Positions 8,041 to 57,157 are shown, counted from the first letter of the whole stretch. The stretch is 61,590 bases of DNA, filler included, from Actinobacteria bacterium UBA7524 (GCA_002478275.1; 6 parts of 6 records of this genome joined end to end with filler, not necessarily neighbours in it); one strand, 5' to 3'. Numbers and translations are program-made. The notes: a model not told the origin generated them from the letters alone.

Positions 8041-8062
8041 GAGCGCGTAAGGATTCGGGGGG
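8041..8062 (+). repeat. 22-bp sequence repeated at a contig end; probable terminal repeat of a multicopy IS
   Basis: GAGCGCGTAAGGATTCGGGGGG matches 53529-53550 at 21/22 positions; both copies run directly into a contig break. Confidence 0.6.
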
Positions 8063-8162
8063 NNNNNNNNNNNNNNNNNNNNNNNNNNNNNNNNNNNNNN
8101 NNNNNNTTAATTAATTAANNNNNNNNNNNNNNNNNNNNNNNNNNNNNNNNNNNNNNNNNNNN
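8063..8162. other. Artificial contig linker (N-TTAATTAATTAA-N)
   Basis: 100-nt spacer with stops in all six frames. Identical linkers at 12581-12680, 38926-39025, 50516-50615 and 53551-53650. Confidence 0.97.
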
Positions 8163-11556: not shown

Positions 11557-12549
11557 GTGGAGGGATGTCCGATCACCAGCATGTTGGGCGACAACCAAGA
11601 GAGCAGCGGATTGTGTGAGCGCGAGTCGTACAGAACTCGGGACCTGAAGCCCGCCGCTGAAAGCATCGCCGACAGCTCCCGGTAGCTCTTGATGTTGATG
11701 TGCACCTGATCGTAGTAGATTTGCTCCGCGGTTCGCTCGAAGCCCCTCCACCCATGACGCCATCTAAGGTAAGCCACGTACGCACGGGATAGAACCGTAC
11801 TGTCGGTCCCATTGCATAGAGCGAGCCCGTTGGGCGTGTGGATGACGACCTCACCTCCACGTCGAAGAATGGCGCGAATCGATAGGAGCAGTGGGCGCAG
11901 TTCTCTATCCGAGAGGTGTTCGGTCACGTCGTTCATGACCACGAAGTCGAACTCCCCGAGAGTAGTCAGGTCGTCGGGAACAAGTTCAAAAGACACGTCC
12001 AAGCCGTTTCTGACTCGAGATTGGGCTTTACTGAGCGGCGCCTTAGCCGCATCCACACCGACAACACAGATGTCTGCGGAGGCCCCAAGGGCTAGCGCGA
12101 AGTCACCATTGCCGCAACCAAAGTCCAGTACACGGAGGTCGGGCCGCAGGCGGGGTGACAGGTAGTCGAGAGCGAACCGGGTGTACTCGTTCACCACGTA
12201 CTCGCCGGCGATAACCTGCTCCGCAGCGTGTGAGCTGACTCGGCGAAAGTACTCGTCATCGTAGAGCGCCGAGACATCNNNNNNNNNNNNNNNNNNNNNN
12301 NNNNNNNNNNNNNNNNNNNNNNNNNNNNNNNNNNNNNNNNNNNNNNNNNNNNNNNNNNNNNNNNNNNNNNNNNNNNNNNNNNNNNNNNNNNNNNNNNNNN
12401 NNNNNNNNNNNNNNNNAGAGCGCCGAGACATCTCTCGAGTCCAGATGTTGTCGATACCCGTTGAAGAACGAGTTCAAGAAGACCGAACCCTGGGGCTGCC
12501 CCAGGCGCTCTAGCATCTCCCGGATCTGATCACGGCTCAGATACAGCAT
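11553..12549 (-). CDS. Class I SAM-dependent methyltransferase (spans an overlap gap)
   Basis: VLDFGCGNG motif I, FDFVVMNDVTEHL, LRRGG...TPN. The N-terminal part joins through DVSAL, duplicated on both sides of the gap. ATG at 12549 with GGAGGGG RBS. Confidence 0.85.
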
Positions 12550-12680
12550 CAGGCCCCTCCGCACGGACGAACCGCTTCCANNNNNNNNNNNNNNNNNNNN
12601 NNNNNNNNNNNNNNNNNNNNNNNNTTAATTAATTAANNNNNNNNNNNNNNNNNNNNNNNNNNNNNNNNNNNNNNNNNNNN

Positions 12681-38925: not shown

Positions 38926-39025
38926 NNNNNNNNNNNNNNNNNNNNNNNNNNNNNNNNNNNNNNNNNNNNTTAATTAATTAANNNNNNNNNNNNNNNNNNN
39001 NNNNNNNNNNNNNNNNNNNNNNNNN

Positions 39026-50515: not shown

Positions 50516-50615
50516 NNNNNNNNNNNNNNNNNNNNNNNNNNNNNNNNNNNNNNNNNNNNTTAATTAATTAANNNNNNNNNNNNNNNNNNNNNNNNNNNNN
50601 NNNNNNNNNNNNNNN

Positions 50616-50764
50616 CCCTGCACGACAGCGACACCGCGACCGTGGCTTGTGAGCAGTACAGGTCTGCCAGTCTCGTCAACGCGACGCACGACCTTGCCGG
50701 GGTTGATCTTCATGTCGCCGAGCGGGACGACGTCCTCCGAGAACTTCACTGCGGGGCTGCGCAT
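50616..50764 (-). CDS. Phd/YefM-family antitoxin; 3' truncated
   Basis: EDVVPLGDMKINPGKVVRRVDETGRPVLLTSHGRGVAVVQ with GGAGG RBS. Confidence 0.85.
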
Positions 50765-50780
50765 AGCGGACCTCCAAACC

Positions 50781-50811
50781 GCACCGATATTCTGGTGCTT
50801 ATTGTAGCACC
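50781..50811. promoter_or_regulatory. Overlapping palindromes upstream of the antitoxin; putative autoregulatory operators
   Basis: GCACC-N8-GGTGC (50781-50798) and GGTGCT-N6-AGCACC (50794-50811), with TACAAT on the minus strand inside the second. Confidence 0.55.
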
Positions 50812-50872
50812 TGCAATGAGGTCCTGTTGAGTGCGCCTAAGTCGATCACGCCAGACCTCAGCGGGAAAGGGC

Positions 50873-51388
50873 TTATGAGCGCTCCGTCAGCGCATCTGGG
50901 AAAGCGGACTGGGCTGGAACGGACGCTGCACGCCACATGTTCATGTACCAGTAGATCGGCCAGCCGATGAATCCCGCGAAGGCTACGACGCCCACATGAT
51001 TCGGGCATTCCCATCGAGTCGCGGGTTGCGGAACACGTCAACGAGGAATATCGCGACGAGCGCCCAGCACAGAACGATGATGCTCACGTGCGCGACCGGT
51101 ACTACGTCGAGGAACCAGGGTGCATCACCGGTACCGGGTACCGGTGACACCGTGGTCACCCCCCGCGAAGAGCGGGGTCGCCCACACGAACATGCGGTCA
51201 TTGGACAGGTCGCTCCAGAACAGGGCGTGCATGATCGAGAGCGCAATGTACGCGAAGGACAAGAGCACCGCTACGGCGACCACGACGAACAGCCACATGA
51301 AGGCTCGCTCGTCCAACACGTTGAGCAGAATGAGACCTGCGCCCCAAACGGCTCGCAATGCTCGAGGAATGCGCATTCTGTCAGCCAA
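50873..51388 (-). pseudogene. Frameshifted membrane protein with PLDc_N-like motif
   Basis: Coding-like sequence passes through three frame segments: ...VWATPLFAG / VTTVSP...DVFRNPRLDGNARIMW / VVAFAGFIGWPIYWYMNMWR...*. Shifts fall at a G6 run (~51160) and near 50990. Confidence 0.55.
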
Positions 51389-51455
51389 GTCCCCGCCCCC
51401 AGTTCAGTCCGTAGTGCTGGCGCGTGTCGGTGGTCGCCGCGATCACCAGACGCTG

Positions 51456-51929
51456 CTACCCCGCCTGCACTTCCGGCACGGGTTCCGCCGCTTGCACTCC
51501 GCCGCGTGGCCGCTCGAACAACATCTTGACTGACGGCCTGAGCAGAACAAGGAACGTCAGCACGCCGATGAGAGTCCCGAACGGGATGAACACACAGGAG
51601 ATGCCAGCGGTGACCAGACATGCGATACGACGTCGACGCTTTCGAATCCAGAAGCCGGTCAGAATCTGGAGAGTTGCGAGAGTGCCGAACATGAGCAAGA
51701 AGGCGAGGCCCATCCCGCCGAACAGAATCATGAACATGCCTGGCGGCGGAGCCTCGGCGGGGCCGCTGGCCTGCTCGAACGGGATCGTGGAGAACATGAC
51801 TCCCATAGCGATGTAGAACAAGCCGTACAGCGACATCATCGCGGAGGTGGCGCCAAGAACCCAGTAGCACACGGGTAACGGCCGCAACTGCTCCTCATCG
51901 ACGATCGCTTGCCTCTCGATTGCCTCCAC
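51456..51929 (-). CDS. Hypothetical membrane protein
   Basis: GTG with AGGGGGGA RBS; 3-4 TM segments; FIPFGTLIGVLTFLVLLRPSVKMLF. Confidence 0.75.
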   Translation of the reverse strand: MEAIERQAIVDEEQLRPLPVCYWVLGATSAMMSLYGLFYIAMGVMFSTIPFEQASGPAEAPPPGMFMILFGGMGLAFLLMFGTLATLQILTGFWIRKRRRRIACLVTAGISCVFIPFGTLIGVLTFLVLLRPSVKMLFERPRGGVQAAEPVPEVQAG

Positions 51930-51949
51930 TGCGATCCCCCCTAGGTTGA

Positions 51950-52675
51950 TCAGCGTTCCTGGTTCGGATTGGGAACTTCGATTTGCCCGAACACCGCTCC
52001 TGCCCATTCGCCGGTGACTGGGTCCCTCGTGAACGTGGCGTAGTGGTCCGGCCACATGTCCTCGACGTACGTACCCTGTCGATTTCGGCGCGCCACCCAG
52101 ACAACGTATTCCTCACGGCCTTGCGAATCGGTGCCATCGAACCAAACTGCCGAGACCACCGCGTTTGGACCTGGCCGAAGCGGCGCGTACGCCTCAATGA
52201 ATCCGTCAACATCATAGTTCATGCCTGTGCGAGGGTCCGGCGTCATGGTCTGCGCGTGCCGGAAGAACGTTTCGGCAGTCGACCAGCCATCGGACAGCTC
52301 CTCACGCGGGGGGCCGGCCCACACAGCGAGCCGACCCTCATTCTCGAAGCGGACATCCAAGAGCAACTCCTCATGCCGCTCGCTCCGAAGGATGTAGCCG
52401 GACATTGTGGAATCCACGATCCGATAGCCGGGGTAGCCCTCGTCGATGAATGGGCGCATCACTGACATCGAAGCGGTTTCCGTCGAAATGAGCCGCCATA
52501 CGGAGTAGCCAGCGCAACCACACACAGACAACAGCAGCAGCACAGCGACGCTTACCGCGATGATCACGCGCTTCCTGGTCCAGAACCGCCGCGTCTCCGG
52601 CACGGCCACCGGCGCGGGTGCGTCAAGCTGCACGGCCTCGCTCGACGCAATCGAGTTTGGAGATTCCTCTGTCAT
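51950..52675 (-). CDS. Hypothetical membrane-anchored protein
   Basis: Single N-terminal TM after RKR; GGGGG RBS directly after the attC-like site. Confidence 0.7.
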   Translation of the reverse strand: MTEESPNSIASSEAVQLDAPAPVAVPETRRFWTRKRVIIAVSVAVLLLLSVCGCAGYSVWRLISTETASMSVMRPFIDEGYPGYRIVDSTMSGYILRSERHEELLLDVRFENEGRLAVWAGPPREELSDGWSTAETFFRHAQTMTPDPRTGMNYDVDGFIEAYAPLRPGPNAVVSAVWFDGTDSQGREEYVVWVARRNRQGTYVEDMWPDHYATFTRDPVTGEWAGAVFGQIEVPNPNQER

Positions 52676-52694
52676 GTAGCCCCCCAGCTTCTGT

Positions 52695-52798
52695 GTCGAA
52701 CGCTTGTGCGGATGAGCAGCGATGCGCTGCCATCCGTGATTCTCACCCGAGTGTACCTCGTCACGCGGCGTATTGACTGCTCAATCCGCGGGTTGGGT
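52695..52798 (-). mobile_element. attC-like recombination site (104 bp)
   Basis: Minus strand: ACCCAAC (RYYYAAC), 5 nt, GATTGAGCAG ... CTGCTCATC with one extra base in the left arm, then GTTCGAC. Starts 6 nt after the upstream stop and ends 19 nt before the next ATG. Confidence 0.6.
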
Positions 52799-52804
52799 GG
52801 CATG

Positions 52805-53410
52805 TCAAAACGAATGCGACATCCCGTCCGCCGACCGGGTGGCGTCCACGCTGAACTCCGCAACGACCGGAACGTCCCCAACGGGGAGACTGAGCCTGAC
52901 ACCTGATGCGGCGAGATCAACGGAAGGCCCCAGATGCACCGTCAGCACGAGGTCGGTCGCTCCTCGGGGCAGCTTGAACGTCCGACGTGTGTAGAAACCG
53001 GAGGTTCGGACCGGGCTGTCTTTGTCGGTCCATGCGGGGGCGCCATCATCGGCGATGATGATTGTGTCCGTCTCGGTGATCGCGGCGATGGACCACAGCG
53101 GATTTGCCTGGATAAGAGCCTGGACCGAATCGGCGGAAAGCTCAGCATATACGTCCGGTGCGTCCGTCCCGTCCGGGGCGAGTCGCTGGACCCGCATCGT
53201 AACACCGAGAACTTGTGCCCCGGAATAAGCCTCCGTCGTCGCAGTCCCCCACTCGGCCTCGGACTCCTCAGAGACGGTTTGGGCCGAATCCGTGTCCCCT
53301 CTCGTGAGCGTGACAGGGGGCGGGGCGGCATCGAACTTGGCGCAACCAGCGACAAGCAGTAGGGCGAAAAGTGCTGCTGCGAGCATGACCTCGGTCGTCC
53401 GATTGCTCAT
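52805..53410 (-). CDS. Hypothetical lipoprotein; putative gene cassette
   Basis: LLLVAGC lipobox; flanked by two attC-like sites. Confidence 0.72.
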   Translation of the reverse strand: MSNRTTEVMLAAALFALLLVAGCAKFDAAPPPVTLTRGDTDSAQTVSEESEAEWGTATTEAYSGAQVLGVTMRVQRLAPDGTDAPDVYAELSADSVQALIQANPLWSIAAITETDTIIIADDGAPAWTDKDSPVRTSGFYTRRTFKLPRGATDLVLTVHLGPSVDLAASGVRLSLPVGDVPVVAEFSVDATRSADGMSHSF

Positions 53411-53432
53411 CGCACAAGCTGCCCTTCGTTCC

Positions 53433-53526
53433 ACCTAGTGATTGCGCATGACCACAACGCCGCGCCCGATTCCCGCCCCAATCACCCTACCGATGCGACG
53501 AGCCGTTGTCGATGCGCAAGTTCGAC
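53433..53526 (-). mobile_element. Degenerate attC-like site (94 bp)
   Basis: Minus strand: GTCGAAC-TTGCGCAT[C]GAC...GTCATGCGCAA-TC-ACTAGGT; extra C in the left arm and a decayed core site. Confidence 0.5.
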
Positions 53527-53528
53527 AG

Positions 53529-53550
53529 GAGCGCGTAAGGTTTCGGGGGG
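53529..53550 (+). repeat. Second copy of the 22-bp IS-end-like sequence at a contig end
   Basis: GAGCGCGTAAGGTTTCGGGGGG, 21/22 identical to 8041-8062. Confidence 0.6.
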
Positions 53551-53938
53551 NNNNNNNNNNNNNNNNNNNNNNNNNNNNNNNNNNNNNNNNNNNNTTAATT
53601 AATTAANNNNNNNNNNNNNNNNNNNNNNNNNNNNNNNNNNNNNNNNNNNNCTTGTATTGGGCTGGGGTGGAAGCTAGCACAGGGGGCCGGCGGTCCCGGA
53701 CTTTGTGGTCCGAGGGGGGTGGGCGTGGTGTGGTCGATGGGTTTGGTCATGGCGGGCATAGCGAGCGACGGATCAGCTCGACCAGCCAGCGCGCCACGTT
53801 CTATCAGGCACTCGCTATGTGTGCAACGAGGGCCTGAAGTGCAATGTCGCAGGGATGCAGTATCCTCAGGCAGAGGACGAGACTTGGCAATTGGAGCTGA
53901 GGGCTCCAAAGCCACCGGTTGTTCAGACGGGGGGGTCT

Positions 53939-56900
53939 ATGCAGAGCGAGAATCCACAGCTGAGCCTGAGATACGTCGCCGATTCGGAGCTGAATCTCGA
54001 TGGCGGCACTGATCTCCTGGCTACCAAACCGTACGTCGATGTGCTGGAGCGGACGGTGCTCGACTGCACACCTCCGTTCACCATCGGTCTCTTCGGCAGC
54101 TGGGGCACGGGTAAGTCGTCTGTGGCAGCGACATTGTGCAAGCGCATAGACGCAGCCAGTGAGCAGACCGGCGTGGCAACGTTCACATACGATGCGTGGA
54201 AGTACTCAGGCGACGCGTTCTATCGGGCCTTCCTTCTGCAGTTGCGGTCACGCTTCAGCCTCGTTGGCGACGATCTGTACGATGAGTTCTACAAGGACAG
54301 CACTGCGGATGTTGGGCACGAGGTTGTTGCCTCAAAGTCCTTCGCTGTGGCCCTCGCTTCGTGGCTCCCGATGATTCTGCTTATCCTCTGGCTGATGTGG
54401 GCGCAGCCAGAACTCGAGACCGCCGTCCTCGTTGCGCTTCTGGGCGCGGCAATCACCGTTCTCGCCCAGGTGACTAGGAACGCGTTCATCACCTACACAG
54501 TCACCGTGAACCGACCGAGAACATTCGCCCCTGAACAGTTTGCCGAAGCGTTCAATGCCGCAATTGGGGCGATTATCGGACAGCCGGTCAAGGCGAAGTG
54601 GTTCAAGCGATGGGGTGGTACCAAGCTCAAGCGGCTGGTGATCGTGGTAGACAACATCGATCGATGCGACGGGCAGACCGCTGGAGATCTTCTCCTGAAC
54701 ATCAAGAACTTCCTTGAGCGTGAGGACGTCGTCTTCCTGCTGCCTCTAGACCCGGATGCCGTCAAGCGATTCCTGGACTTGGGTGAGCCTCAGGCATCTG
54801 AGTATCTGCGAAAAATCTTCACGGCTAGCATCACAATGAAGACCTTCACCACTAGCGAGCTGTTCGATTACGCCCAGGATCTGAATGAGACGAACGGGCT
54901 GGGGCTGCCGCCAGAGGCCGTTTCTCTTGCCTGCCAAGAGTTCGCCACGAATCCGCGCAGGATCATCCAGTTCTTGAACACTCTTCAGAACGAGGTGGCG
55001 TTGGCAACGGCGCAAGAGACTGACGGTCACATCGATTCGGGCGTCGTGTCTGGCAATGTTGCGTTCCTCGCGAAGCTGCTTGTCTTGAGAGAGGAATGGC
55101 CGGACTTCTTCGCGGGGGTTTGCGCGGAAGGCGGGCTGCTGGCGAGAGTCAATGAAGCCATCAAGCACGGGAAGTATCAACCGCATCCAGGGAATCCCGG
55201 CCAGTGGTCAGGTGAAGGAGTGCCGCTGCTGGAGACGGGGCTTTACCGATTCCTCATGCGCTCACAGACGATGACTGCTGATGCGCTGGATCCGTTCGTG
55301 GTCAACAAGGACGTGTTCAGAGGCGTGCCGGATTCGCTGAATGAGTTAGTGGTGAGTCAGAGCTGGGATGAAATCGTCGAAGGTATCAAGGCTGCGGCCT
55401 GGTCGCTCAAGCAGGTCGTGGACCTGGCCCTGCGTATAGGGGACAGAGATCTCGTGCAACGCAACTTGATGCTCACATCGGGATACAACGTTCTGGGTCT
55501 CTTCGGTGCCGCGCTCAGCGATTCCACCTACAATGACGCCGTGATGGATCTCCTGGGGGAGACGGAGGTTCACAGAATCGCCGCCATGTGTGAGTTGCGT
55601 TCGGTCGAACAGGTACTCGACAAGTTCAATCCCTCCAGACTGGTGGCTCTCGCGCGATTCCTACTCGAGCGTGGACATCCCACACTGGCGACCAGGGCAG
55701 TGGCACACGTCCGCGCAGCGTTCACTGGGGAGGGTTCTGTTGACCCCGCACCTAGGGACCTTCTGACCGAGATGATTCTTGGAATGGCTGATCATGCGGA
55801 TATTCTCGCCGAATTGGCTGTTCCGTTCGGCATATTTGCTGCAACGGCTCCCGTTGAAGCAGCTGCCCTCATTGCGGAGGTGCCGGAAGCAGCAAGAGTT
55901 ACGGTGCTGAGCGAACTTGCTCCGATGTCCCTGCTCGCTTGGGTTGAAGGTGAGTCCCCCCATGAGAGTCCCCATGATGAGCAGAGGTGCATTGACGCTG
56001 TCTTTGGACTGCTGCGTGAGGCCAGAAGCGCCGAGCACGTCAGCGGAGATGATATCGATGCGCTGGTCACGGCCACAGCAAGGCGAATGGAGCAAGAACC
56101 CGATCTCGATTCGCGAGAGACTTGGCTTCAGAGAATCGAAGGCTGGATAGACGAGGGCTCCGGGAGTCTGGTCCTTGGTGAACTTGCTGCAGCTCTGGAT
56201 CCCTTGATTGCACCGACGAGACTCGCAAGTGGGTCGGGTGAAGGCCTGCTCGCTGTGCGAGTCGCGGACAGGCTGATTCAGGATACAAGTGCCGACCTGC
56301 CTCAGCTGGAGAATCGCCTCGCGGAGGTAGCCACGTCTGACGATCTCAACGATGAACTGTCGGGATTCGCAACGGAGTCACTGATAGCCGCAGTGCGCCT
56401 TCATGCGCGTGGTTGGCCCTTCGTTGACGCAGTATTCTCGGTCGCAGAATCGCTCCAGGTCAATTCGAATGCATTCGCTAGAGCCGCCAAACTGCTCGGT
56501 GCAGTCATCGATTCGGACTCACCGGCGAACCGCCTGGACGACGCTCAGATTCAACGTCTGGCCAGCATCGTCTGCCGCGAAGGGGTGGCGGAGACCTGTT
56601 CTGACCTTTTGGCCAGCGCGCTAATGAACGAAGAGACTGCGCCACCAGTCACGCAGCATGTGTTGGATCTGCCGCATCGCTCACAAGCATTGACCGCCGC
56701 AATCTGGCGTAGTCGTCCCGAGTCGAGAGTGACGCTCTTGGACCAAGCGCTAGACACATACTCCTCAACAACCGTCCAGGCAACGATCACGGGGATTGCA
56801 GCAACTGTTGATCGTGATTCGCTCGGTCCTAGCCTCGCAGACTACGTTGATACCCTGCGCGATCCCATGACCGCTGCGAAGGTTGTTCGAGGGGTTCTTC

Positions 56901-57157
56901 GGTCGCGGGTTGTGGTTCCCAGAGACCGGCTGTCCGCTGCAATGTTCCGAGGAATTGTGAGAAGTGATAGGACGACTGCGATCCAGATTCTCGACCGGGC
57001 CCTCGGTGACGAGCTTGCAGGGTTGAGCGACGACGACTGGAAGACAGCAGCAAAAGGGCTGGACATAGGCAGTCTGGGCAAGAAGCAGCAAGCCACGATG
57101 AAGAAGGCGCGCAAGGTGCTGAAGTACATGAGGGCCAGAGAAGCGAAGCAGGCGTAG
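53939..57157 (+). CDS. KAP-family P-loop NTPase with long helical C-terminal region
   Basis: PFTIGLFGSWGTGKSS (Walker A), YDAWKY, two TM helices inserted after Walker A, RLVIVVDNIDRC (Walker B), EYLRKIF, NPRRIIQFLN. Confidence 0.92.
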   Translation: MQSENPQLSLRYVADSELNLDGGTDLLATKPYVDVLERTVLDCTPPFTIGLFGSWGTGKSSVAATLCKRIDAASEQTGVATFTYDAWKYSGDAFYRAFLLQLRSRFSLVGDDLYDEFYKDSTADVGHEVVASKSFAVALASWLPMILLILWLMWAQPELETAVLVALLGAAITVLAQVTRNAFITYTVTVNRPRTFAPEQFAEAFNAAIGAIIGQPVKAKWFKRWGGTKLKRLVIVVDNIDRCDGQTAGDLLLNIKNFLEREDVVFLLPLDPDAVKRFLDLGEPQASEYLRKIFTASITMKTFTTSELFDYAQDLNETNGLGLPPEAVSLACQEFATNPRRIIQFLNTLQNEVALATAQETDGHIDSGVVSGNVAFLAKLLVLREEWPDFFAGVCAEGGLLARVNEAIKHGKYQPHPGNPGQWSGEGVPLLETGLYRFLMRSQTMTADALDPFVVNKDVFRGVPDSLNELVVSQSWDEIVEGIKAAAWSLKQVVDLALRIGDRDLVQRNLMLTSGYNVLGLFGAALSDSTYNDAVMDLLGETEVHRIAAMCELRSVEQVLDKFNPSRLVALARFLLERGHPTLATRAVAHVRAAFTGEGSVDPAPRDLLTEMILGMADHADILAELAVPFGIFAATAPVEAAALIAEVPEAARVTVLSELAPMSLLAWVEGESPHESPHDEQRCIDAVFGLLREARSAEHVSGDDIDALVTATARRMEQEPDLDSRETWLQRIEGWIDEGSGSLVLGELAAALDPLIAPTRLASGSGEGLLAVRVADRLIQDTSADLPQLENRLAEVATSDDLNDELSGFATESLIAAVRLHARGWPFVDAVFSVAESLQVNSNAFARAAKLLGAVIDSDSPANRLDDAQIQRLASIVCREGVAETCSDLLASALMNEETAPPVTQHVLDLPHRSQALTAAIWRSRPESRVTLLDQALDTYSSTTVQATITGIAATVDRDSLGPSLADYVDTLRDPMTAAKVVRGVLRSRVVVPRDRLSAAMFRGIVRSDRTTAIQILDRALGDELAGLSDDDWKTAAKGLDIGSLGKKQQATMKKARKVLKYMRAREAKQA

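Follow-up and report, generated by a model that had tools for sequence, protein, structure and literature searches.

A predicted gene cassette bounded by attC sites in a small-genome actinobacterium related to Coriobacteriia, and integrons among its relatives

Sedentary chromosomal integrons such as those of Vibrio carry many cassettes per array, with attC sites that resemble each other within a lineage, a cargo of orphan and toxin-antitoxin genes, and a high prevalence throughout the taxon. A gene cassette is a single, usually promoterless ORF with its attC behind it, and cassettes stand in tandem in one orientation. The attC is an imperfect palindrome whose outer R boxes (RYYYAAC ... GTTRRRY) and inner L stems enclose a variable centre; its structure is conserved more than its sequence, and extrahelical bases on one arm give it strand specificity. 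The strand of attC that is recombined is canonically the bottom strand. Sedentary chromosomal integrons are also described for Xanthomonas in the abstract of PMC12444791, and a second layout, that of the inverted-integrase integrons (defined in passages of PMC13323075), is found in Spirochaetota such as Treponema and in Cyanobacteriota, where intI precedes the cassettes and shares their strand. IntegronFinder uses a further category, CALIN (cluster of attC sites lacking an integron integrase), for two or more neighbouring sites with no such integrase nearby (passages of PMC4889954 and PMC9024848). Here we analyse a stretch of 61,590 nucleotides from Actinobacteria bacterium UBA7524 (GCA_002478275.1; the whole stretch is referred to as the window), in which positions 52,695 to 53,526 hold a predicted lipoprotein gene between two attC-like palindromes. 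We conclude with high confidence that a single gene cassette from a chromosomal array of integron type lies here, in a relative of the Coriobacteriia, an actinobacterium with a small, high-GC genome. In itself, the lipoprotein cassette is of a known and ordinary kind.

The source genome (G000) is a metagenome-assembled genome (MAG) of 1.81 Mb in 60 contigs, 83% complete with an estimated contamination of 0.58%, and the locus lies on its 2935 bp contig C20 (window 50616-53550). Every credible gene on C20 (a Phd/YefM fragment, membrane-protein open reading frames [ORFs], a 241-aa ORF and the lipoprotein gene) is on the minus strand, and in that direction the order is the end of an insertion sequence (IS), a degenerate upstream attC, a 27-nt leader, the lipoprotein gene, 6 nt, the attC of the cassette, about 20 nt with a GGGGGG ribosome-binding site, and the 241-aa ORF. 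The cassette thus has a short 5' leader, the lipoprotein gene and a 104-nt attC, and spans about 737 bp (window 52701 to ~53437, with the minus strand as sense). Its cargo is a predicted lipoprotein of 201 aa (52805-53410, minus strand; TGA stop at 52805-52807) in an ORF spanning 52805-53434, with the ATG at 53410 as the likely start and an alternative GTG at 53434. The original prediction, made from this DNA alone, described a promoterless lipoprotein gene between imperfect palindromes with an extra base in the left arm, and the sequence bears this out: the 201-aa ORF lies between sites of 104 nt and 93-94 nt, extra bases are present on one arm of each palindrome, and no sigma-70-like promoter was found in 52600-53550, the scan being limited to that promoter type.

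The attC of the lipoprotein cassette (siteL; 52695-52798, 104 nt) is oriented on the minus strand, with the + strand as its bottom strand, and is matched by a covariance model of the site family (R1, described below) at 52691-52802 on the + strand with 67.8 bits. The + strand starts with GTCGAAC and ends with GTTGGGT; on the top (minus) strand these are the R'' box ACCCAAC and the R' box G|TTCGAC, and we infer a crossover point between 52700 and 52701. Copies of siteL on contigs C27 and C58 are 84-91% identical (BLAST and nhmmer), and the extra base beside its 6-bp stem is A, versus G in the other 14 of the 15 aligned sites. The site at the opposite end (siteR; ~53434-53526, 93-94 nt, minus strand; model match 53429-53530, + strand, 45.7 bits) is the upstream attC, belonging to the preceding cassette, and is degenerate. 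On the + strand it starts with CCTA..G and ends with GTTCGAC; the R'' box GTTCGAC (53520-53526) is intact, and the crossover box CCTA..G is without the AC of the AAC triplet, with a 2-nt gap placed there both by MAFFT and by the covariance model. A copy of siteR at C27:1890-1981 is 77% identical. By themselves the two sites are suggestive only.

The relationship between the two sites offers some clues to their history. The 8-nt TGTCGAAC (52694-52701) is the exact complement of GTTCGACA (53520-53527), in agreement with the initial observation that the end of the upstream site complements the sequence following the cassette. It is plausible that this reflects insertion of the cassette into an older attC by attC x attC recombination, and it is equally expected if the preceding cassette and this one had attC sites of a single subtype; with an IS repeat at the contig end, 2 nt past siteR, the evidence on such an insertion is hidden. 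The inner 9-mers, CCACCCAAC and ACTAGGTGG, are complementary except for three transitions, the number originally counted, but loss of 2 nt from the crossover triplet explains the change at the 5' end of the cassette better than substitutions do, because of the gap placement and because the next spacer then fits the family consensus. The deletion in siteR would destroy the crossover point, and since siteR has lost 2 nt of the triplet and the IS abuts it, the lipoprotein cassette is probably immobilised and not excisable on its own. The spacers, first given as right-hand spacers of 7 and 9 nt, measure 6 nt and 2 nt.

These sites belong to a family that is repeated in the genome. Copies of siteL and siteR with 77-97% identity are present on the small contigs C27 and C58, and weaker full-length matches in the same strand, 300-2000 bp apart, are found on C28, C31, C34, C42 and C58 (BLAST, nhmmer). 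We aligned 15 sites of this genome (alignment A1) and built from them the covariance model R1, which replaced our own pattern-plus-pairing genome scans because these did not discriminate from a reversed-genome control (4751 versus 3789, and 275 versus 179). The aligned sites are 87-105 nt long, with left boxes ending in AAC and right boxes starting with GTT in 13 of 15 each, and 92.9% of cells are paired in a 19-pair structure compared with 26-41% with slid partners, a comparison biased in favour of the structure, which was derived from the same sequences on which it was tested. Compensatory changes on both sides are seen in 9 of the 19 pairs (28 cells), and none of 500 shuffles reaches the observed values.

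The shared architecture, read on the strand opposite to the genes, is an AAC-ending box (typically GCCTAAC), a 6-nt spacer, two 6-bp stems, a further G+C stem, a variable centre, and a return arm with two single extra bases, a 2-nt spacer and a GTT-starting box (typically GTTAG). The R boxes are CTAAC/GTTAG-like across the family, and the extra bases on the 3' arm are T in 11 of 15 sites and then, nearest the R box, G in 14 of 15. In canonical integron biology the bottom strand of such a site, here the + strand, would fold into a hairpin with bulges, in which a paired R box of the CTAAC/GTTAG type is followed by two 6-bp stems, set apart by extra bases (first G, then mostly T), and by a variable tip. 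The hairpin would be bound by an integron integrase, which would exchange strands at AA|C of the R box, and cassettes would leave as circles and re-insert at attI or at another attC. The variable tip of many of the sites contains a conserved CCGAG, 2-3 nt, TACC and then CAC.G, which can form a small hairpin (examples are at window 52750-52772, C27:1125-1147 and C58:4290-4312).

Searches with R1 give 25 matches in the genome at E<=1, of which 22 have E<=3.5e-8 and 10 are outside the training set; with filters off there are 23 matches at E<0.001 on eight loci. The matches are strand-specific, the reverse strand of the same sites scoring 12-14 bits versus 77-89. The copies at gene boundaries that a cassette array should contain are thus present, and 24 of 26 sites lie directly 3' of an opposite-strand ORF that ends -9 to +67 nt from the GTT-side (R'') box, the two exceptions being at contig ends. 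The stop codon is inside the box in several sites, and the next ORF begins tens of bases on, after a G-rich ribosome-binding site; this spacing of sites and ORFs is the layout of integron gene cassettes. Tandem runs of cassettes in the same orientation are present on C27, C28, C42 and C58, with site spacings of 295-2012 bp, and although many of the sites are on small, IS-fragmented contigs, they are also found on the 16-kb C42 and the 32-60-kb C34 and C54. Rfam gives no match on C20 or at C42:11000-16036, and to our knowledge has no attC family.

Comparison with a class 1 integron shows that the plan of these sites is the usual one. In a 12.9-kb class 1 integron locus of plasmid pDCPR1, used as a positive control, the sole significant R1 match is the blaVIM-2 attC, between blaVIM-2 and aac(6')-Ib4 (23.2 bits, E 1.4e-4), and it is on the strand opposite to the cassette genes, the correct strand. 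Both types of site have AAC/GTT R boxes, a 6-bp stem and then another stem, one extra base at a distance of 8 nt from the R'' box, and a variable tip. They differ in that the blaVIM-2 attC scores 23 bits compared with 45-89 for the family, with low sequence similarity, the crossover-side spacer is 6 nt here and 3 nt in blaVIM-2 attC, the first extra base is C in that attC instead of G, and the sites here are 87-105 nt long compared with about 70-80 nt in class 1 attC. Because the blaVIM-2 site has the same plan, we regard the sites described here as attC of normal architecture with a sequence flavour of their own. The suggestion that they might form a divergent attC class is rejected, as the distance of 8 nt from R'' box to extra base is that of the blaVIM-2 attC.

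The recombinase that such sites would need is found in the close relatives. Our sample of the order consists of 101 genomes at species level, G000 and 100 others, with kinship based on GTDB, and an integron integrase (IntI) was called from TIGR02249 above the curated NCBIfam cut-off (265 bits). R1 matches at E<=0.001 are present in 93 of the 101 genomes and in all 25 sampled families, and IntI is above cut-off in 69 of 101 (~280-490 bits) and in none of 14 control genomes. A full IntI (475.7 bits) is present in two of the four genomes of the same family, and the one in G001 shares 50.3% identity with IntI1 across 95% of its length. In the 17 cases with IntI and listed R1 sites on one contig, the sites are on the strand opposite to intI in all 17, and in 16 they start no more than 30 kb beyond its 3' end. 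In G078, for example, a series of 19 sites starts within 800 bp after intI and spans 11 kb, and its cassette ORFs share the strand of intI, while G021 has an 18.5-kb stretch with 22 sites that ends 1.6 kb from intI. In these relatives intI directly precedes the arrays and is encoded in the strand of the cassettes, which is the inverted-integrase layout. A candidate recombinase exists beside arrays in the lineage, but none was found in this assembly.

Across the phylum, in an even sample of 401 genomes, IntI is above cut-off in 23, including three of four from this order and none of 27 from other orders of the class. The remaining IntI-bearing genomes are spread over some ten other families, mainly f36 (6 of 10) and f38 (7 of 21). 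R1 matches at E<=1e-6 occur in 9 of 150 genomes of the phylum sample, one of which is G000; the other eight are in families f36, f38, f52 and f61. Families f36, f38 and f52 also contain IntI-bearing genomes, and in four genomes the R1 match adjoins intI in the same layout. None of 10 genomes of the same class outside the order was matched by R1. The unpublished genomes G182 and G248 are counted in these phylum figures. We consider it likely that this entire order of small-genome, mostly uncultured Actinomycetota related to Coriobacteriia, which may be the OPB41/Anaerosomatales lineage, has ancestral, largely vertically inherited sedentary chromosomal integrons with an inverted integrase, and that a few other deep actinobacterial families do too.

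The integrases themselves group accordingly. IntI relatives at 62-73% identity are mostly in records titled Actinobacteria, Actinomycetota, Actinomycetes, Coriobacteriia or Coriobacteriaceae bacterium, whereas those of Spirochaetota and Cyanobacteriota, which belong to other phyla, are 55-60% identical. In an IntI tree (a quick search with a midpoint root), all 32 actinobacterial rows and two otherwise labelled rows form one group (SH-aLRT 93), provisionally sister to the IntIs of Spirochaetota and Cyanobacteriota, and the joint clade is split from IntI1 and the rest (SH-aLRT 99). Four same-order sequences are identical to named rows, three of them labelled Actinomycetota and one Eubacteriales. 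The record titles and the tree rows together support an actinobacterial host, as first surmised from the DNA. Some IntIs inside or beside the actinobacterial clade are in records labelled Eubacteriales, Desulfuromonadales or Bacteroidetes/Bacteroidota (L050, L069, L044 and L065), one of them identical to the IntI of a same-order genome, which points to mislabelled bins or to transfer.

Set beside the sedentary integrons of Vibrio and Xanthomonas, the arrays of this order are alike in having many cassettes (up to 22 sites in 18.5 kb), sites similar within the lineage, orphan and toxin-antitoxin cargo, and high prevalence throughout the taxon. They differ in the orientation of the integrase and in hosts that are Gram-positive-type, high-GC and small-genome, and in G000 the array is fragmented by IS elements in an assembly without an integrase. 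In its assembled form the locus resembles a CALIN: C20 has two attC sites 738 bp apart, and no IntI was found either on the contig or elsewhere in the assembly. That label is formal and dependent on assembly, and given relatives with complete integrons C20 may be a piece of one.

Several observations count against reading the locus as an integron cassette. No integron integrase was found in the window, as originally stated, or in the 83%-complete assembly, in which the best TIGR02249 score is 81.5 bits compared with the cut-off of 265; the five tyrosine recombinases of the genome are two Xer-like and three phage-type proteins, none of them on C20. No attI or cassette promoter was identified, and the intI-proximal end of the array is absent from the assembly. 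The contig that carries the locus is 2.9 kb long and comes from a metagenome bin, and no recombination product was observed, the contigs of sequencing run X1 showing no joints. The aac(6')-Ib4 attC of pDCPR1 has an R1 score of 7.6 bits, which is not significant. SiteR has no AAC triplet and a poor second stem; its minimum-energy fold is the long attC-type hairpin, yet this is no better than that of shuffled sequences (z -2.1 and -1.4). The minimum-energy fold of siteL consists of three local hairpins (-26.1 kcal/mol, z about -4 for the single strand against shuffles), and its attC-type fold, at -23.7 kcal/mol, is less stable by 2.4. The expectation that the bottom strands form attC hairpins is borne out by a shared, strand-specific architecture with covariation, and not by the minimum-energy fold of siteL.

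The most serious of the other explanations concerns activity rather than identity and is a variant of the cassette reading: the array may be a fossil, its integrase truly lost and its sites relics that act at most as terminators or spacers. We regard this as possible but the less probable state. The missing IntI, the lack of IntI at E<=1e-30 in the 99%-complete same-family genome G002 despite six site matches, the IntI fragment of only 85 aa in G003, the 2-nt deletion in the crossover triplet of siteR and the IS elements that interrupt the arrays would all fit decay. Set against these, 17% of the marker genes are missing from the assembly, integron regions assemble badly, with contigs and scaffold gaps breaking inside attC arms, two of four same-family genomes have a full IntI (475.7 bits), and most sites of G000 keep intact AAC/GTT boxes and stems. 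With the cassette reading itself, the integrase of G000 would be either unassembled or lost, and the array would appear as the IS-broken attC clusters seen in the assembly.

Whether the cassette is actinobacterial at all depends on the placement of C20, which as a short contig of a metagenome bin is assigned to the genome by binning and by its lineage-typical site sequence. It is improbable that C20 comes from another organism of the community: the contig is short and bounded by an IS, its G+C content is 0.62 compared with 0.63-0.65 in large contigs, and some records with IntIs of the clade bear the labels Eubacteriales, Desulfuromonadales and Bacteroidetes, but the same site family is present on the 16-kb C42 and the 32-60-kb C34 and C54 of the bin, and in 92 of 100 other same-order genomes while being rare in the rest of the phylum sample. 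Estimated contamination is 0.58%, lower G+C is usual for accessory cassettes, and at worst C20 would derive from a related strain of the same order. Least probable of all, to the point of being negligible, is that the palindromes are ordinary intergenic repeats (REP-like elements, miniature inverted-repeat transposable elements [MITEs] or shared terminators) unrelated to integrons. They are indeed intergenic hairpins directly after stop codons, siteL folds best as local hairpins, and Rfam has no match; against this, the sites of relatives are co-located with bona fide IntI in a fixed orientation, the palindromes are strand-specific, with AAC/GTT boxes and asymmetrically placed extra bases, R1 cross-detects a class 1 attC, and there are neither T tracts after the stems (no terminator is listed at either site) nor target duplications. 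Chance palindromes, along with REP, MITE and terminator repeats, are rejected on the stem covariation, the co-location with IntI in relatives and the strand specificity. The reading as an integron cassette was put forward from two sites, and the further copies, the attC architecture and the recombinase of the lineage have now all been found.

IS elements break up the arrays of this assembly. The right end of C20 is the first 22 nt of an IS terminal inverted repeat (53529-53550, + strand), 2 nt beyond the R'' box of siteR. This repeat faces outward at the ends of C1, C3, C12, C35, C36, C49 and C53 (with a variant or offset of 1-2 nt in C12 and C53), the C12 copy being at window 8041-8062, and is also present at C9:40-61. 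The contig ends carry at least four recurrent IS-like terminal repeats: one ending TTTCGGGGGG (C1, C3, C9, C12, C20, C35, C36, C49, C53), one starting CACCACTTGACGGGAC (C7, C8, C34, C44, C55), one starting CACTTCAAACTTGAACTCAGGC (C27, C28, C31) and one starting GTTAACGTCCCCGGAAGTGGTG (C29, C38, C44, while C6 begins with a variant of the reverse complement). Shared 8-bp target duplications in C49 and C3 and in C1 and C35 indicate the adjacencies C49-IS-C3 and C1-IS-C35; the 8-bp duplication expected for the IS end of C20 is on no contig of the assembly.

The attC sites are themselves places at which the assembly breaks. Scaffold gaps start exactly inside attC arms at C27:1750-1889 and C58:2808-3006 (loci L015 and L016), and the Logan unitigs of one run break at the attC arm 52747-52789, with a depth of 53-150 compared with 16-19 in the flanks, a contrast that is not independent evidence because the run may be the source sample. 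Run X1 contains 88% of the sampled words, but is available as contigs only, none of which covers 53412-53550, so that it is silent on excision and on the IS junction. Because hairpin repeats break short-read assembly, cassette arrays are probably under-assembled in such MAGs. Comparison of the array-distal flank at C42:9000-13500 with four same-family genomes gives no DNA synteny, only 33-42-nt matches to a palindromic element, and there is no tRNA on C42. The element is about 40 nt long with the core AATCTGATAATCAGATT and lies beside a start codon (positions 12506-12548 of locus L018 on C42; also G001:C48, G004:C92 and G003:C43). It is 85-91% conserved among same-family genomes whose flanks otherwise do not align, and looks like the operator of a small regulator or antitoxin gene close to the array's distal end.

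The cargo of the cassettes in G000 is typical of sedentary integrons. Pfam searches of 26 cassette ORFs give no family for 14, toxin-antitoxin parts for seven, other families for four, and a sub-threshold match only for one. The lipoprotein, as judged from its sequence, is an orphan. Its translation has a predicted signal peptide and an LVAGC lipobox, and it has no Pfam match; among the 100 related genomes there is one relative with 32% identity, in G020, likewise inside an attC-bounded cassette, and a collection of 5.8 billion proteins holds one of 140 aa that is 63% identical. Of the 287 pattern stretches matched when metagenomes were scanned for relatives, none was confirmed, and the best ESM Atlas score of 0.84 is under the useful range, leaving DUF4352 and DUF5067 as weak leads only. 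A 762-aa AAA_13/AbiEii-like ATPase (Pfam E 2.3e-39) is encoded at C34:20672-22960 (L020 6676-8961, minus strand) between weak attC matches (22-26 bits) and may be a large defence-type cassette.

Elsewhere on C20, the 241-aa ORF (51950-52675, minus strand) encodes a membrane-anchored protein of no known family, with no Pfam match; it starts 16-20 nt beyond siteL with a GGGGGG ribosome-binding site in front. The left end of the contig holds a truncated Phd/YefM antitoxin gene (50616-50764, minus strand; PF02604, E 1.4e-8, 34.8 bits versus a cut-off of 29.8), and the covariance model found no additional attC on the rest of C20, including after the 241-aa ORF. The window joins six contigs (C12, C13, C16, C17, C20 and C22) that are separated, according to the N-run map and contig mapping, by artificial linkers N44-TTAATTAATTAA-N44 at 8063-8162, 12581-12680, 38926-39025, 50516-50615 and 53551-53650. 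Since the contigs are unlinked, gene neighbourhoods across the linkers are artificial and the neighbours of C20 in the window are irrelevant; DNA beyond the linker at 53551-53650, between C20 and C22, is not physically adjacent. On C22 a + strand ORF of 1112 aa (53819-57157) has an N-terminal P-loop (GSWGTGKS) and predicted membrane helices, and presumably resembles a KAP-type NTPase.

The interest of this locus lies in lineage-wide integrons within Actinomycetota, a phylum for which surveys report none or almost none. According to passages of PMC4889954 and PMC9024848, surveys of complete genomes have reported no complete integron in Actinobacteria and only extremely rare parts, a passage of PMC2426708 describes them as absent from early genomes, and a 2026 metagenome study refers to their "virtual absence" in Actinomycetota MAGs, at about 0.2 per genome (passages of PMC13323075). 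The premise that integrons are rarely reported in this phylum agrees with PMC9024848, PMC4889954 and PMC13323075 in these parts. Actinobacteriota are listed among the phyla with integrons detected in a passage of PMC8618304, and an excerpt of 10.1101/2024.07.02.601686 speaks of clades earlier without any integrons, with a defence system of Bacillota and Actinomycetota as the example in its next sentence. Our literature search, which did not cover subscription journals and supplements, found no paper on integrons in Coriobacteriia or OPB41, and the word "integron" has no occurrence in the search listing for the paper describing Anaerosomatales. The integrase genes of same-order genomes have probably already been labelled by public annotation pipelines.

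Against the prevailing picture, one actinobacterial order seems to have integrons as a rule, with further occurrences in a few other deep families. Order-wide integrons, if true, contradict the survey view of Actinobacteria as lacking complete integrons and of a barrier to integrons in the phylum. If confirmed with IntegronFinder, they would mean that the supposed phylum-wide barrier is not general and that integron biology can be tested in monoderm, high-GC anaerobes, and the lineage-specific attC model could be used to assign metagenomic cassettes to their hosts.

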